Part shown: positions 4,945 to 63,602 of the stretch, one piece after another
Numbering within the stretch: the stretch's first letter is position 1
Layout of the letters: every line of letters begins with the position of its first letter
Assembly: GCA_026417135.1 (NCBI GenBank)
Contig: JAOADV010000004.1
Location: 814-64,813 of the forward strand
DNA: 64,000 bases
From: Ignavibacteria bacterium
GTDB lineage: Bacteria > Bacteroidota > Ignavibacteria > Kapaibacteriales > UBA2268
Direction: 5' to 3'
Notes under the pieces: model-generated
Told to the model about the DNA's origin: nothing
The model's database searches: none
Seen by the model: only the letters and a program-made list of their open reading frames with translations
Made by a program: the position numbers and the translations under genes

Positions 4945-5493
4945 ATGAAACATATCCAAAGCAAAAGCATACACTCCACAACCGTAATTGGGATATTGAA
5001 GGATGGGAAAGCTGCTATCGGAAGCGATGGACAAGTTACTCTTGGGACAACAGTTTTGAAACAAGGTGCTAAGAAGATACGTAGATTATATAATGGTAGT
5101 GTTTTAGCTGGATTTGCTGGTGGGACAGCCGATGCATTTGCTTTGTTGCAAAGGTTCGAAGAAAAACTTGATTCGACGCGTGGCAATCTTTTTCGTGCAG
5201 TTATGGATTTCGCTAAAGATTGGAGAACTGACCGTTATTTAAGAAGGCTCGAAGCAATGATGATAGTTATGAACAACGAAAAAATTCTGCTTCTAACTGG
5301 TAATGGAGATGTTGTCGAGCCCGATGATAACATTGCCGCTATAGGTTCTGGTGCTCCTTATGCACTTGCAGCAGCAAGGGCTCTTGTCAATCACAGCACT
5401 CTCAGCGCAAGGCAAATTGTCGAGGAATCTCTTCGTATTGCCTCTCAGATTTGTATCTATACTAATTCAGAATTTACGGTCGAGGAATTATAA
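4945..5493 (+). CDS. hslV: ATP-dependent protease subunit HslV (proteasome-like threonine peptidase)
   Basis: 182 aa. STTVIGILKDGKAAIGSDGQVTLG matches the HslV N-terminal catalytic Thr region, and GSGAPYALAAARAL is conserved. Confidence 0.85.
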   Translation: MKHIQSKSIHSTTVIGILKDGKAAIGSDGQVTLGTTVLKQGAKKIRRLYNGSVLAGFAGGTADAFALLQRFEEKLDSTRGNLFRAVMDFAKDWRTDRYLRRLEAMMIVMNNEKILLLTGNGDVVEPDDNIAAIGSGAPYALAAARALVNHSTLSARQIVEESLRIASQICIYTNSEFTVEEL

Positions 5494-56368: not shown

Positions 56369-56472
56369 TTTTGTGATTTTTAAAAAAATGATAAGAAGTT
56401 TAAAAAAAAGTTTTATTTATTTTGATTTTTGTAGGAAAATTATTTAATTTTGGCTGGGGTAAAAGGGGGGAG

Positions 56473-57231
56473 ATGATAAAAATTTTAACTTTTTTTTCTC
56501 CGAGTAGTTTTTTTCAATTGAATTTACCGCACGATGCAATTTTTGTTGGTGTCGATATTTTGCGGGCGGGGACAACACTTTGTACTGCTTTAGCAAACAA
56601 AGCAAAGGAAGTTGTTCCAGTTGTAAGCTCAGAAGTTGCACTGAGGTTGTATAATCGATTCGACAGAGATAATGTTTTGCTTTGCGGCGAAAGAAATGGA
56701 CAAAAGATAGAAGGATATGCTCTTGGAAATTCTCCATTAGAGTTCACTTCGGAAAAGGTAAATAATAAAACCTTGATTTTAGATACAACAAATGGAAGCA
56801 AAATTTTCGCAAACGGATTGGATTTTCGCTATGCGTTGGTTGGGGCTTTTATTAACTTCACTTCTATATTCAATGTTATAAGCAAAATTATATCTTCGAA
56901 AAATGCGAATATGATTCTTCTTGTTTGTGCGGGGGACAAAGGTGGCTTTTCTTTCGAAGATGCTCTTTTTTGTGGTAGTTTAGCAAAAAAAATTGCAGAA
57001 TCCAGCAATAAATTTGTTTTAGATGATGCAACGAGGGCCTCGATTGACTTATTTGAACTACATAAACCGAATTTATGTGAATTTGTTAAATCCACCTCTC
57101 ACGCGAAAAATTTAATTGCCCTTGGATACGAGGAAGATATTAATTATGCTTTAACAACGGACCTTTTCGCTGTTGTTCCAATTTCTAACGGTGTTTCCTA
57201 CATCAGCTATAGGCCGAAGGATGGCGAGTGA
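56473..57231 (+). CDS. 2-phosphosulfolactate phosphatase (ComB) family protein
   Basis: VGVDILRAGTTLCTAL…LLCGERNGQKIEGYALGNSPLEF…LDTTNGSKIF are ComB-family motifs. The start was chosen at MIKILTFF (56473), which follows AAAAGGGGGG, not the ORF-track start at 56422. Confidence 0.7.
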   Translation: MIKILTFFSPSSFFQLNLPHDAIFVGVDILRAGTTLCTALANKAKEVVPVVSSEVALRLYNRFDRDNVLLCGERNGQKIEGYALGNSPLEFTSEKVNNKTLILDTTNGSKIFANGLDFRYALVGAFINFTSIFNVISKIISSKNANMILLVCAGDKGGFSFEDALFCGSLAKKIAESSNKFVLDDATRASIDLFELHKPNLCEFVKSTSHAKNLIALGYEEDINYALTTDLFAVVPISNGVSYISYRPKDGE

Positions 57232-59815
57232 AAAGGATAAGGTAGAAATTCAATATAGAAGAAAGAGAAAGAGCTCTTTCCAAGAACCACAAACTCAAAA
57301 TGATTCTGCGGAAGAGCTTCGCAAACAAATAGAAGAAAAATATTTTAATCGATTGAAGATTATTTCAATTTTAGTTTTGATTTTTTCATTCTTTGCTGTT
57401 TTATCAATTTTATCTTACTCTCCAAAAGATGAGTTCATTTATTCCTTTTCTTTTAAGGATGTTCTGGGTTTAATAACTGGCGATGAATCGGCTATTCAAA
57501 AAGCGAAATCCGTGTCTAATTTACTAGGTCCTTTTGGTGCGGTTGTGGCAAATTTTTTTATCAAAGCTACTATTGGTTACTTTTCTGTAATTTTCCCTAT
57601 TCTTGCAATTCTTTGGTCGTTAAAGATTATTCTTACTAAGTCGTTCAGTGGACCTTTGGCAAAAAGGACACTCTTTGCGGTCATTGGTTTGGTAGCAGTT
57701 GCCTCATTTTTAGAAAGCTTAAACTTGCTTTTTGCTTTGAAAATTCCTTATTTCTGGATTGGTTCTTTGGGTTATTCTATTTCTAATGTTTTATCGAACA
57801 TCTTTGGTAATCTTGGAGCTCTTTTAATACCAATTTTTACCATATTTTTTGCTATCATATTTACCATTGAAGTAAAGATAGAAAATTTTTTTCTTGCTTG
57901 CAACGATGGATTAAAAAAAATTCTTGGAAAGTTAAGGGAACTGAGGGTCAAGAGACAAAACGAAAATATCGAGAAAGAGACTCAAGCGAAAGGAAATTTA
58001 AGTGAATCAATTCCAGCATTGGATGAAGATATCGAAACTGGCCGCATATTAATCCAAAATATTAGCAAGAATGAAAATGGAAGTGAGTTCATAGACAAGC
58101 CTGATTCGACTAATTCTATTATTCGAAAAGACTTTTCAAGCGAAAATTTAGAAAAAGAAAACTACATTGCACCATTGGTGGAAAGAGAAAATCGTTCCGA
58201 CGATATTGAACAAGACTTGGAAAGTAATGAGAATGATAGGAAGCTTGTAGTAATAGTCGAACAAGAAGAAGAAGATGTCGTCGATGGGAAAAAATCAGCT
58301 TTTAGCCCTTTGTCGACTATTACCCTTGATGAAAAAATAAATTACACACCACCACCAATTGATTTACTTATCGACGATGAAAGCAAGTTTCAAATAAACG
58401 AGGAGGAGTTAAAACAAAATGCTCGAACCTTACAAGAAAAGCTCGAAACTTTTAAAATTTACATCGAAAATTTAACGGTAACTCCCGGACCCGTGGTTAC
58501 GTTATTTGAATTTGTTCCAGCACCAGGAATTAAAATTAGTCGAATTCAAAGTCTTGCCGATGATATTGCTTTAGGATTGAAAGCAAAGGGAATAAGAATT
58601 ATCGCACCTGTGCCCGGTAAAGGGACGGTCGGAATAGAAATGCCAAACAGAAAGCCATTGGTTGTTAGATTTGGAAATTGTTTGAAAAATGCGCGAATAC
58701 CTCCTAACTTTAAGTTACCGATAATTCTCGGGAAAACAATTTCGGGCGAAGTGTATGTGGACGACCTTACAAAGATGCCCCACCTTTTGATTGCAGGGGC
58801 CACAGGCTCTGGCAAAAGTGTTGGCATAAATACAATTATCGTATCCTTGATATATAAAATGTCGCCGCAAAATTTGAAGTTTGTTATCATCGACCCCAAA
58901 AAGGTTGAACTTTCGCAGTATCAACAACTTTTGTATCATTACCTTGCAGTTTCTACTGAAATCGAGGATGCGATTATTACTGAACCACACGATGCTGTGC
59001 ATATTCTTAAATCTCTTGTGGCGGAAATGCAAATAAGATATGATATTCTTGCATCAGTTAATCAAAAGAACATCGCGGAATATAATAAAAAGGTCAAGGA
59101 TGGTGTTTTCAAAAATGAGACCGAATTCGAGCATCGACCTTTACCGTACATAATTGTAGTAATTGATGAATTAGCCGATTTGATGCTAACGGCTGGAAAA
59201 GAAATTGAAACTTTGATAATACGACTTGCGCAGCTTGCTCGAGCAGTTGGAATACATTTGGTTGTAGCAACTCAAAGACCTTCGGTTGATATCATTACTG
59301 GGTTGATAAAAGCAAATTTCCCGGCAAGGATTGCTTACCTTGTTGCTTCGCGGGTGGATTCGCGAACTATAATAGATACAATTGGTGCGGAACAACTTCT
59401 TGGTAGTGGCGATATGCTTTTTCTTCCTAATGGAAGTCCCACTCCGATTAGATTACAAAATGCATTTCTGACTACCGAAGAAATCGAAAGAATTTGCGAT
59501 TACATCGGCAACCAGAAAGGTTTTTCTAAGCCTTACTATTTGCCAGCAATTGACGATGGAAAAGGTGCAAAGGAGCTGGTTCGTGAAGGTTTCGACCCAC
59601 TTTTTGCCGAAGCTGCTAGGCTAATCGTTCGATATCAGCAAGCTTCCGTTTCGATGTTACAAAGACGGCTTAAAGTTGGCTACAATCGTGCTGGTCGGAT
59701 TATGGATGAGTTGGAAATCGCTGGTATTGTTGGTCCATTCGATGGAAGCAAAGGTCGAACAATTAAAATTAAAACAGAAGAAGAGTTAAACGATATGCTA
59801 AGTAAGTTCGAGTAA
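57221..59815 (+). CDS. ftsK: DNA translocase FtsK/SpoIIIE
   Basis: N-terminal 4-5 TM helices, a long acidic/low-complexity linker, and the motor domain with Walker A LLIAGATGSGKSVGIN. The C-terminal gamma winged-helix domain follows. Start chosen at MASEKDK (57221), overlapping the ComB-like stop by 11 nt; the ORF-track start is 57173. Confidence 0.9.
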   Translation: MASEKDKVEIQYRRKRKSSFQEPQTQNDSAEELRKQIEEKYFNRLKIISILVLIFSFFAVLSILSYSPKDEFIYSFSFKDVLGLITGDESAIQKAKSVSNLLGPFGAVVANFFIKATIGYFSVIFPILAILWSLKIILTKSFSGPLAKRTLFAVIGLVAVASFLESLNLLFALKIPYFWIGSLGYSISNVLSNIFGNLGALLIPIFTIFFAIIFTIEVKIENFFLACNDGLKKILGKLRELRVKRQNENIEKETQAKGNLSESIPALDEDIETGRILIQNISKNENGSEFIDKPDSTNSIIRKDFSSENLEKENYIAPLVERENRSDDIEQDLESNENDRKLVVIVEQEEEDVVDGKKSAFSPLSTITLDEKINYTPPPIDLLIDDESKFQINEEELKQNARTLQEKLETFKIYIENLTVTPGPVVTLFEFVPAPGIKISRIQSLADDIALGLKAKGIRIIAPVPGKGTVGIEMPNRKPLVVRFGNCLKNARIPPNFKLPIILGKTISGEVYVDDLTKMPHLLIAGATGSGKSVGINTIIVSLIYKMSPQNLKFVIIDPKKVELSQYQQLLYHYLAVSTEIEDAIITEPHDAVHILKSLVAEMQIRYDILASVNQKNIAEYNKKVKDGVFKNETEFEHRPLPYIIVVIDELADLMLTAGKEIETLIIRLAQLARAVGIHLVVATQRPSVDIITGLIKANFPARIAYLVASRVDSRTIIDTIGAEQLLGSGDMLFLPNGSPTPIRLQNAFLTTEEIERICDYIGNQKGFSKPYYLPAIDDGKGAKELVREGFDPLFAEAARLIVRYQQASVSMLQRRLKVGYNRAGRIMDELEIAGIVGPFDGSKGRTIKIKTEEELNDMLSKFE

Positions 59816-59879
59816 GAAATAATTGAATTTTATTAATTCGATAAATTCGTAAGCTACTTTAATAAAATTTTTTCGAATA

Positions 59880-60848
59880 TTACCTAAATTTAACAAATTG
59901 GAGCAGATTTCTCCAAATAATAGGATATTTACCACCAAGAGGACCAATTTTCTTCCAATCGCCAAGAACTTCTAACTCTCTTAAAATTCTTAAAATGTCT
60001 GTTATATCTCTTTCAACATTGGTAGTTTGACTTGCGAGTTTCTCTTTCAAAATTTTATCACATAGAACCTTCTTAAGGCTTTTAATATTTTCGAAATAGT
60101 TGTAGTCATCGTTAATTTCTTGAATAATTCCAACAATGTCGATATAGTTCCCTTGGATGAGAAATATTTTTCGGATAAATTCTTTAATCTTATCATCATC
60201 TTTTTCTGCAATTTCTAAGAACTCTTTGCCCAGTTCAGAAATTTCGTAGGAATTTAAATCGAAGAGCTTTAAATCTCGTAATAATAATTTGATATTGATT
60301 AAGTTAGATTTTTTTGCTGATTTCCATTTTCTAATTTTGGTAATTGTATGCCAAATTGTTTCATCAATATATTCTTTTTTGGGTGAATTTTGAAGAGCTT
60401 GGTAAATGTTTTTTAAAATAATATAGATTTCCTTATATTTTAAATCTCTGTAGTAAGCATAACCTCTTTGAATTTTTTCTGTAGTTATTAATAGCTCGGC
60501 TTGTGGTTTTGGTTCTCGATGTATTGAAACTCTGTTAGGTTCAACACAAATTATTCAAATGAAATTTGTCCATAACCATTTTTCCATTAATTCTAGTTCT
60601 TTTCTGGGTAAGGCTAAGTAAGATTTATCTGAATGCCTACAAAAAGCAATAGCTTGTCCCAATCCAGTCAAGTACTCTCTTCGATTAAGGTTGCTTGCCT
60701 TACATTCGATTTGAGCCAAAGTGCCATTTAAGTATTTAACTTGAATGTCGGGCATAGGGAAGTGATAAGCGAATCTTGTTACAATTTCGACATCGGACTT
60801 TTGTTTGAACCAATTAGAAACTAATTGCACAACCTCGTTATGTGTCAT
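59880..60848 (-). pseudogene. putative Type II restriction endonuclease (PD-(D/E)xK fold) interrupted by an in-frame TGA at 60555-60557
   Basis: A 97-aa ORF (60555-60848) contains the PD…ExK motif FPMPDIQVKYLNGTLAQIECKAS. The same frame continues past a single TGA for another 224 sense codons down to a TAA at 59880-59882. That downstream segment has no ATG, GTG or TTG near its 5' end, which is why it is absent from the ORF track. Sampled lines are ~25% GC against ~40% for the neighbours. Confidence 0.5.
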
Positions 60849-61758
60849 TTTGGTTTTTTAAAAATTAGAACATAGTCGTGGTTACAGATAAAATAATTAA
60901 ACCTTAGGGAGCGATATTTATTCAAGTTGATTTTGCCTTGCCGTGAACTTGCAAAACGAGTAATCTTGATGACTTTTGAATAATATTCAAAACCGACCTT
61001 TAAACCAACTTGCGTTGCGTAAAAATCTAATGGTATTGTTTTACCTCCTTTTTTAAAGTCCTCGCCAATTAAAACACAGAAAAATTTTCCTTTTTTAAGA
61101 ACTGTGAAAACTCCGATGAAAACTTTCTCTAACCCTTCGAGAAAACCATCAAGTGTTTTTTCGTTGGAAAGGTCTCCATCGACGAAGCCATATTCTTCAC
61201 CATATTTGACAAGTTCCCAATATGGTGGATGTGCAAAACAAAAATCAAAACTTTCTTTTTCTAAACCAAGTTCGAGCAGTTTTGTTGAGTTCCCAAGAAT
61301 AACTCGTTGTTGTTTAAGCCAAAAAAGTAATGAATCATCGTCAAATCCCAATGTTTCTTGTTGCAAATTTAATTTAGCAACTTCGAGTATTTTAGGGTTA
61401 ATTTCGACACCGACACCTCTTCGTTTCACTGTGCAGCAACTATCAAAGTGGTTCCCGAACCACAAAATGGGTCCAAAATCAAATCGCCTTCTTTCGAAAA
61501 GCGAAGCAGACATTGGCGTGGTATTTCAATTGGGGAATTGCCGTGGACGGTATATTTAGTCCAATTGTATGGGTCGCGTTCTGGGGTATCCCATATTGTA
61601 AAAAATTGAATGTCTAAGTTTTGTTCGTATTCTTTCCATTTTGTAGGGTCTAAGTCGTTTACTTCGCCATTTTCCGTTTTTTTCGATATTGCGTTTGGTT
61701 TTAAAAGTTTATATTTACTTAGGTTAAATAATTCGTCCATAACTTTTGCAAAATACAA
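60845..61758 (-). pseudogene. N6A/N4C-type DNA amino-methyltransferase disrupted by a -1 frameshift near 61426-61432
   Basis: The 110-aa ORF ends …HGNSPIEIPRQCLLRFSKEGDLILDPFCGSGTTLIVAAQ* (motifs X and I). The overlapping 222-aa ORF in the -1 frame continues …KRRGVGVEINPKILEVAKLNL (motifs II-III), then ILGNSTKLLELGLEKESFDFCFAHPPYW (motif IV), then …NHDYVLIFKK. Restoring one nucleotide after the CAG (Gln) codon joins them into AAQ-x-KRRGVGVEIN. Its stop overlaps the nuclease gene start as ATGA. Confidence 0.6.
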
Positions 61759-61800
61759 AATTAGATGATTTTAATTGTGTTTAAAATGAAAAGAAAAGGG

Positions 61801-62421
61801 TTATTTCCCCGATATATCTAACAAAATTTTATTTAAAAAGGTTTTTCTATGCAATGGACTGGGCTGGTATTTCAATATTTTTTCGATGTGCATTTTTGTC
61901 GCATAACCTTTATGCCTGTCGAAACCATAAATTGGATACAGTTTATGGGCAACTTCGCTCATCCAATTATCCCGCTCAACTTTTGCAACTATCGATGCAG
62001 CAGCGATAGAAAATGATTTTGTATCACCATCGACAATAGTGGAAAATTCATAAGGACCTTCGAAACGGTTTCCATCGATTAAAACATAAGGAGCGTAATC
62101 AGCAAGTTGTTCAAGGGCTTTGTTCATAGCTAAGATAGTAGCTTTCAAAATGTTGATTTCGTCTATTTGATATGCTGGAACAAAGTAAGTTGAAAAAGCC
62201 AGACAAGTTGAGATGATTTTTTCGTAAATTTTTGCACGAACCTTTGGAGATATGGTTTTGGAATCGAAAACTTCGTAGTCTGGGACGAAATTTAGAGGGA
62301 AAATCACAGCGGAAGCGAATACTGGACCAGCAAGAGAACCCCGCCCAGCTTCGTCGACCCCAGCAACGAGCTTTCCAATTTCCCAAAATTTTTTTTCAAT
62401 ATCGAAATTAGGTCGTTTCAA
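61801..62421 (-). CDS. rnhB: ribonuclease HII
   Basis: VAGVDEAGRGSLAGPVFASAVIF is the RNase HII active-site motif. 206 aa. Confidence 0.9.
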   Translation of the reverse strand: MKRPNFDIEKKFWEIGKLVAGVDEAGRGSLAGPVFASAVIFPLNFVPDYEVFDSKTISPKVRAKIYEKIISTCLAFSTYFVPAYQIDEINILKATILAMNKALEQLADYAPYVLIDGNRFEGPYEFSTIVDGDTKSFSIAAASIVAKVERDNWMSEVAHKLYPIYGFDRHKGYATKMHIEKILKYQPSPLHRKTFLNKILLDISGK

Positions 62422-63144
62422 TTATTTTAGGTAACCCATTCCAATTAAGTTTAAAAATTCATTTCTGAGGTTTAAATCGGCAAGCAAGTAGCCTCGCATA
62501 ACTGAAGTAATCATAAGTGAACTTTCTTCGTCTCCTTTAACGCCACGAGCAATCATACAGTAGTGCCGAGCACGAATTACAACGCCCAAAGCTTTTGGTC
62601 TTATTAATTCTTCTATATAATCGGCAATTTGTTCGCCCAATTCTTCTTGAATTTGCCCACGTCTACAAAACCAATCGACAATGCGCGAGAGTTTACTAAG
62701 ACCGATAATATACTTGTTTGGAATATAGCCGATAGAGCATTCCCCCGAAATAGGTTGCCAATGGTGAGAGCAAACACTCATTACAGTTATTCCTTTGCTT
62801 ATGATTAGTTCATTTATTTTCTTTCGATTTGGGAAAATTGTACTTTTAGGTGGCTCTTGAAATCTTCCAACAAAAAGTTCATTAACTAACATTCGTGCAA
62901 TCCGCAAAGGTGTTTTTGTCGAGTTTGGGTCTTGTCGGGAAATTCTAAGTATTTCCATCACTTCGATAAATTTTTGCTCGAGCCGTTGAATCATTGTCTC
63001 GCGTTCCTCTTTGCTTAGAGGGATGTTAGCATTAGCATCGAACAATAATTCGTTCCACTGATTATGAGTTGGAAAAGTACTTAAAATTTCCTCAGTTTCG
63101 CTTTCAAAATCGTCGATGTAATTGTTTTCGGGTTCAAAGTTCAT
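62422..63144 (-). CDS. folE: GTP cyclohydrolase I
   Basis: …MSVCSHHWQPISGECSIGYIPNKYIIGLSKLSRIVDWFCRRGQIQEELGEQIAD… contains the conserved CxHH and Cys residues of FolE. Confidence 0.9.
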   Translation of the reverse strand: MNFEPENNYIDDFESETEEILSTFPTHNQWNELLFDANANIPLSKEERETMIQRLEQKFIEVMEILRISRQDPNSTKTPLRIARMLVNELFVGRFQEPPKSTIFPNRKKINELIISKGITVMSVCSHHWQPISGECSIGYIPNKYIIGLSKLSRIVDWFCRRGQIQEELGEQIADYIEELIRPKALGVVIRARHYCMIARGVKGDEESSLMITSVMRGYLLADLNLRNEFLNLIGMGYLK

Positions 63145-63158
63145 ATTTTCATACTACA

Positions 63159-63602
63159 CTATTGATAATCAAAAATCTTTATTTCGACTGGTTCACCAAA
63201 ATATTCTACAAAGTTATTTTCGGTTTCGTAAATTTTGATTTTAAAAAGTTTTCCGTTTGGAATTTTATCTTCGAGTTGGCGCCAGAACATAATTGCAAGA
63301 TTCTCCACTGTTGGTATTATTCCGCGAAGAAAATCGACCTCTGTGTTGAGATTTTTGTGGTCAACCTTTTCGATGATGTTCTCGTTTATTATTTTTTTTA
63401 AATCTTTTAAATCGGTTAAATACCCCGTCGCTGGATTAGGATGGCCACAAATGGTAACTTCGAGAATGTAGTTGTGTCCGTGCCAATTTGGATTGTTACA
63501 TTTATCGAAAATTCTTTCATTTTGTTCATCTGTGAATTCGGGATTGAAAAGCCTATGTGCAGCCGAAAATGATGCCCTACGTGTAATAAAAACCATAAGC
63601 AA
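63159..63602 (-). CDS. queD: 6-carboxy-5,6,7,8-tetrahydropterin synthase (PTPS/QueD family)
   Basis: RASFSAAHRL…CNNPNWHGHNYILEVTI contains the QueD CxxxHGH zinc/catalytic motif. 147 aa. Confidence 0.85.
   Translation of the reverse strand: MLMVFITRRASFSAAHRLFNPEFTDEQNERIFDKCNNPNWHGHNYILEVTICGHPNPATGYLTDLKDLKKIINENIIEKVDHKNLNTEVDFLRGIIPTVENLAIMFWRQLEDKIPNGKLFKIKIYETENNFVEYFGEPVEIKIFDYQ

Follow-up and report, generated by a model that had tools for sequence, protein, structure and literature searches.

On the minus strand of the window (the whole stretch of DNA that was analysed, 64 kb of an Ignavibacteria metagenome-assembled genome), positions 59880–61740 very probably hold a decayed Type II restriction-modification cassette of two genes, a methylase gene (M) followed by a gene for a PaqCI-like restriction endonuclease (R). 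The two genes are separate and tightly linked, as in Type II systems, and neither is intact: codon 98 of R is a nonsense codon, and M lacks one base between 61430 and 61429 (Table 1). The cassette is flanked by rnhB (61801–62421) and the convergent ftsK (57173–59815). The TGA of M (60847–60845) overlaps the ATG of R as ATGA (60845–60848), and homologues overlap by 1–11 nt, an arrangement suggesting that translation of R may be coupled to that of M in the intact system.

Table 1. Features of the restriction-modification cassette and its edges, in window coordinates.
Feature	Position	Strand	Description	Evidence
R pseudogene	59880..60848	(-)	322-codon PaqCI-like PD-(D/E)xK restriction endonuclease, broken at codon 98	Translation, full-length homologues, fold and sequence match to PaqCI
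N-terminal fragment ORF of R, 97 codons + TGA	60555..60848	(-)	Helix 1, strands 1-3, helix 2, strand 4 and helix 3 of the nuclease core	
Premature stop TGA, codon 98	60555..60557	(-)	Gly in homologues (GGA/GGT), start of strand 5	Alignments and codon reading
P33-D34 of the PD motif	60747..60752	(-)	D34 (60749-60747) aligns with PaqCI catalytic D54	
E48-C49-K50, ExK motif	60699..60707	(-)	Aligns with PaqCI catalytic E73 and K75	
C-terminal 224 codons of R, untranslatable	59883..60554	(-)	Last two nuclease-domain strands, linker, helical/winged-helix target-recognition domain	
Invariant RGYAYYRDL in the R linker	60467-60441	(-)		
M pseudogene	60845..61740	(-)	N6_N4-type Type II DNA methyltransferase, ~298 codons if repaired	Pfam PF01555 on both pieces
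M lesion	61426..61432	(-)	One base missing between 61430 and 61429	Alignment to intact homologues
M motif I DPFCGSGTT	61447..61473	(-)	AdoMet binding, upstream of the frameshift	
M motif IV HPPY	61220..61231	(-)	Catalytic, downstream of the frameshift	
Spacer of 60 nt, rnhB stop to M start	61741..61800	(-)	Presumed promoter region of the cassette	
Spacer of 64 nt, ftsK stop (59815) to R stop	59816..59879		Downstream edge of the cassette	

Promoter and terminator scans gave matches at the level of shuffled sequence, with no sigma-70-like site above chance, and no convincing direct or inverted repeats flank the cassette as signatures of a mobile element. The best candidate for such a repeat, a 30-nt, AT-rich pair with 73% complementarity, was taken as a chance occurrence. 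ARAGORN found no tRNA gene in any part of the 64 kb, and no Rfam family reached its gathering threshold there. The slot after rnhB has variable content in Kapaibacteriota relatives that share the queD-folE-rnhB synteny (61801–63602 in the window). At one locus (L019, 5710–8595) it holds an intact 961-aa MmeI-like Type IIG/IIL enzyme, at a second (L018, 5713–8750) a 98–100% identical copy broken by an insertion of ~155 nt and a change of frame, and at a third (L020, 5663–6346) no restriction-modification gene. The site downstream of rnhB seems to be a hotspot for the gain and decay of restriction-modification or defence genes.

In the deposited annotation of this genome (NCBI), the N-terminal fragment of R appears as a hypothetical protein (N2517_03560, MCX7879717.1). 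Just MCX7879718 and MCX7879719 lie between this fragment and RNase HII (MCX7879720.1), and these two proteins are presumably the two methylase pieces; going by the accession numbering alone, the remaining 224 codons of R therefore appear to be unannotated.

The interrupted endonuclease gene

The locus was first noticed in a sequence-only reading as a 97-aa ORF with a PD…ExK motif, ending at a TGA past which the same frame stays open for 224 codons without a start codon at its beginning. This description holds in full. R begins with ATG (60848–60846), continues for 97 sense codons to the TGA (60557–60555), and then runs on through 224 open codons (60554–59883) to a TAA (59882–59880); the motif, MPDIQVKYLNGTLAQIECK, lies in the first part and supplies D34, E48 and K50. 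The first ATG, GTG or TTG past the TGA is a TTG at 60050, which leaves 168 codons free of starts, so that an ORF lister shows a lone 56-aa ORF in a region that otherwise seems empty. The gap of 740 nt described for the ORF track corresponds to 59816–60554, or 739 nt. When the window was shuffled 100 times, no open run reached 224 codons (maximum 197, mean 131). The geometry of two same-frame neighbours split by one stop proves nothing on its own, since folE/rnhB and hslV-like/maf, which are pairs of unrelated genes, show it as well.

That the two pieces belong to one gene for a protein of about 322 aa, as had been proposed, follows instead from the homologues. A search with the joined protein found 23 of them among 5.8 billion clusters, and most are 320–335 aa long, have 38–62% identity and align across the stop with 100% query coverage. 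Intact versions of R were found in related genomes, the comparison that had been recommended as a check. The codon affected is that of Gly98, a residue (in the motif F-I/V-G-I/L) shared by all full-length close homologues and encoded by GGA or GGT in the relatives; a single G-to-T change (GGA to TGA) would explain the stop. The earlier view of a nonsense-inactivated restriction gene fits this one-base change well. A protein that stops at codon 98 lacks the entire recognition domain, the linker and the final two strands of its nuclease core. The window copy retains the other 38 of the 39 residues that are invariant in the close family; the lesion is therefore probably young.

The same TGA might be read as a sense codon, decoded as Gly (as in genetic code 25), as selenocysteine or by leaky near-cognate readthrough, with full-length R as the product. 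It does sit exactly on a Gly codon, as code 25 would read it, and two relatives (L005 and L014) carry TGA at a Trp codon, the former in an otherwise intact gene. Within the window, however, TGA is a genuine stop, as previously stated: of the 61 open frames of at least 150 codons, 14 end in TGA, among them Pfam-complete genes and the ComB-like 2-phosphosulfolactate phosphatase gene at 56422–57231, and ftsK (880 aa) and other long genes are free of the internal TGA codons that a reassignment (codes 4 and 25) would bring. Ignavibacteria are not known as a lineage with recoded TGA. Readthrough would not restore M, which requires a frameshift, and R, if active while M is not, would kill the cell; another relative (L008) has TAG instead, and no recoding signal was found, Rfam having no match anywhere in the window. 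Because TGA terminates many genes here and M needs a frameshift, recoding was rejected as exceedingly improbable.

Nor is the split likely to be functional, with the 97-aa fragment acting as a stand-alone nuclease or regulator or with the lesions serving as reversible switches. The short ORF retains its ATG, PD and ExK and is called as a protein in the deposit, and phase-variable restriction-modification systems exist. But the fragment is without two core strands and all of the DNA-recognition parts, no member of the family naturally takes this form except as a fragment, and the downstream 224 codons offer no start for their first 168. Phase-variable systems have a simple-sequence repeat at the switching site. 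Neither the substitution in R nor the 1-nt deletion in M (within CACA/GTG) lies in such a repeat, for which reason phase variation was rejected, and we consider a functional split highly improbable. A gene inactivated by a nonsense mutation is the preferred reading of R.

Fold of R and kinship with PaqCI

Searches of Pfam, NCBIfam and PADLOC with the pieces of R and with the joined protein gave nothing significant, and single-sequence and narrow-profile (A5) searches of the PDB likewise returned no significant match and did not detect PaqCI. The relationship emerged from a broadened profile (A6, 43 sequences), the only search to reach PaqCI (8em1_A, E 1.6e-17). Positions 29–129 of this profile align with PaqCI 44–160, and positions 201–347, the last ~150 residues, with PaqCI 342–507. 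PaqCI, a Type IIS enzyme of Paucibacter aquatile (PDB 8EM1/8EPX), joins an N-terminal PD-(D/E)xK endonuclease domain, with catalytic residues D54, E73 and K75, through a linker of 16 residues to a recognition domain at the C-terminus (PMC10201449). The alignment pairs D34, E48 and K50 of R with these three residues. D34 and K50 never vary among the 43 sequences, which reach down to ~20% identity, and E48 is kept in at least 90% of them.

The structural evidence comes from a confident AlphaFold2 model of P0001, the closest intact homologue, rather than of the window protein itself (pLDDT 90.8, pTM 0.86). Residues 1–111 form the nuclease domain, 112–135 a linker of lower confidence and 136–320 a helical domain. 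The core follows the order alpha-beta-beta-beta-alpha-beta (H3-15, E20-24, E35-39, E44-49, H56-69, E75-81) of the PD-(D/E)xK superfamily, with the D…(D/E)-x-K residues on strands 2 and 3. The fold matches include PaqCI, NucS/EndoMS, Can2, SdaI, NgoMIV, BamHI and SfsA, and 294 residues of the model superimpose in order on PaqCI. The lower matches fall into two groups, PD-(D/E)xK nucleases (NucS, Can2, SdaI, NgoMIV, BamHI) and the winged-helix recognition domains of FokI, N.BspD6I and BpuJI. On this sequence and model evidence, with the fold of the homologue, the profile match and the aligned catalytic residues in agreement, R is taken to be a remote, shortened relative of PaqCI of the PD-(D/E)xK restriction-endonuclease type, and the original assignment to a restriction-endonuclease-like protein is borne out.

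R and PaqCI share the order of domains, N-terminal endonuclease, linker and C-terminal recognition domain, at ~14% sequence identity. At 322 aa, the R family falls ~170 residues short of PaqCI (491 aa), lacks a complete PaqCI-type recognition domain, in that PaqCI residues ~161–341, part of that domain, have no aligned counterpart, and places 13 residues between the catalytic D and E where PaqCI has 18. It is accompanied by a single methylase of ~300 aa and, unlike PaqCI, is represented in the window by a pseudogene. The Type IIS enzymes FokI, N.BspD6I and BpuJI, with winged-helix recognition domains, are much larger than R, show no detectable sequence similarity to it, and have the opposite order, with the recognition domain N-terminal and the nuclease C-terminal (PMC10201449). 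With that stretch of PaqCI lacking a counterpart and one small methylase beside R, Type IIS behaviour of the R family (cutting at a fixed offset from an asymmetric site, with multimeric, multi-site activation) would be no more than an analogy with PaqCI.

By an exhaustive profile search, the wider R superfamily comprises 169 cluster representatives, and 12 of these are close. No Pfam, NCBIfam or PADLOC model describes this family, and ten of the distant superfamily members, when tested, gave no significant Pfam match.

The partner methylase and the relatives of the cassette

The start of M was set at the ATG at 61740 by alignment to intact homologues. M is read in two frames, the first (61740–61426) containing motif I and ending VAAQ-TGA, the second resuming with KRRGVGVEINP, carrying HPPY and ending at 60845. 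At the lesion the window has GCA CA-GTG AAA where intact homologues have GCA CAT TTA AAA; the 1-nt deletion brings the TGA at 61428–61426 into frame and leaves HPPY out of frame with the M start. Both pieces match PF01555 above the Pfam gathering cut-off (E 1e-12 and 4e-8), and an intact homologue matches the PADLOC model MTase_II over nearly its whole length (E 6e-50) and PDB 2ZIE (E 1e-20). By these three matches M resembles the beta-class N6_N4 methyltransferases (CcrM, M.PvuII, TTHA0409/2ZIE), and it has their motif I (FxGxG) and motif IV ((D/N/S/H)PP(Y/F)). It differs from the Pfam model in that motif I precedes motif IV: the N-terminal piece matches model positions 118–200 and the C-terminal piece positions 2–108, and the intact homologue at L001 (5111–5998) has the same permuted order. 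It also differs in the His that begins motif IV, an unusual first residue.

M lies directly upstream of R or overlaps it at all 15 distinct places across the related loci L001–L017, and in the window, and wherever the surroundings of R were inspected they held a single methylase gene. L001 and L007 denote one place, and one protein is common to L002–L004. The loci occur in metagenome-assembled genomes of Ignavibacteria/Kapaibacteria, Chloroherpeton, WOR-3 and Bathyarchaeia, and in differing housekeeping neighbourhoods. Both genes are intact in nine cases (L001/L007, L002–L004, L006, L009–L013 and L015). R is broken beside an intact M in three, namely L005 (TGG to TGA at W13), L008 (TAG at E58) and L017 (a frameshift), and both are broken in another three (L014, L016 and the window); no case of a broken M beside an intact R was seen.

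The possibility that the lesions are artefacts has to be weighed here, that is, that R and M are intact in the organism and that errors of sequencing, assembly or consensus, or minority variants fixed in the consensus, account for the TGA and for the missing base. The sequence does come from a metagenome, both lesions are single-nucleotide events, and both genes are otherwise free of decay, R to the extent of the conserved residues noted above. Yet an error process would have had to strike twice within ~0.9 kb and exactly in both genes of one restriction-modification cassette, at sites of which neither is a homopolymer. The ORF map of the window showed no further split gene, the suspicious ORF pairs that were checked proving to be separate, complete genes. 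Like lesions recur in at least five independent assemblies of the R family, and restriction-modification pseudogenes are common. An artefact thus seems unlikely, and less likely than real pseudogenisation.

With the lesions read as real, the census bears on their order. In Type II systems R is lethal without M, so that loss of M alone is not expected. The three breaks of R alone, set against none of M alone, point to R having died first in the window and M having decayed afterwards, although few cases were counted and a single ancestral event may lie behind both L005 and L014. Small as the numbers are, the asymmetry in these sequences would be natural genetic evidence that R is the toxic restriction partner. 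Dating of the lesions by dN/dS yielded no timing, synonymous sites being saturated in every comparison.

L005 and L014 carry the same TGG-to-TGA change at W13 of R (5037–5039 in both). The two loci are orthologous and collinear, with 72–75% nucleotide identity; L005 is otherwise intact (309 open codons and an intact M), and L014 is heavily decayed. The pN/pS between them is 0.30, equal to that of intact pairs. With this intact-like ratio, the shared stop would be the result of parallel hits, or else a stop that is leaky and tolerated.

The cassettes of Bathyarchaeia (L011, L012, L015, L016, L017) and those of bacterial genomes (L006–L010, L013) share 37–64% protein identity. The neighbourhoods are unrelated: at L001 the cassette lies between an EF-G paralogue and rpsL, and at L002 between rseP and dnaX. 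The presence of related sequences in archaea and in several bacterial phyla, in unrelated surroundings, therefore implies that the cassette has probably been transferred horizontally between domains.

Proposed history and significance

In relatives with an intact cassette, host DNA would be marked by the ~300-aa methylase. R (~322 aa) would recognise unmodified sites by means of its winged-helix domain at the C-terminus, and its N-terminal PD-(D/E)xK domain would do the cutting, at a predicted D34/E48/K50 active site. In the window, a G-to-T change would have cut R off at codon 98, and M, no longer needed, would have decayed afterwards, being cut off behind its AdoMet motif by the 1-nt deletion with the catalytic HPPY left out of frame. 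This resembles the known decay of Type II systems, in which R is lost first and an orphan or decaying M is left behind, with a nonsense codon in R, a frameshift in M and breaks of R alone among the relatives. The sequence-only reading had described the locus as a first step of such decay. Its view of R as inactivated stands, but the neighbouring methylase is dead as well, and the cassette is one step further on, already past the orphan-methylase stage. There is nothing unusual in this; the wholly inactivated cassette is an ordinary outcome of evolution by gene decay. For the source genome it carries little weight, as a dead defence cassette, and the deposit should flag both genes as pseudogenes.

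The intact relatives may be of wider interest. Somewhat tentatively, they can be regarded as an undescribed ‘mini-PaqCI’ family of restriction enzymes of ~320 aa, with an N-terminal PD-(D/E)xK domain, a recognition domain about half the size of PaqCI's and protection by one permuted N6_N4 methylase; the family would have moved between Bacteria and Archaea (Bathyarchaeia). A family missed by the current domain libraries would thereby gain a name and a mechanism, as remote homologues of PaqCI with a putative catalytic triad identified by alignment. The intact homologues P0001, P0002 and P0009 are short, tractable candidates for new restriction specificities. If they cut at a fixed offset as PaqCI does, few Type IIS-style enzymes would be smaller, and they may offer new specificities for DNA assembly.
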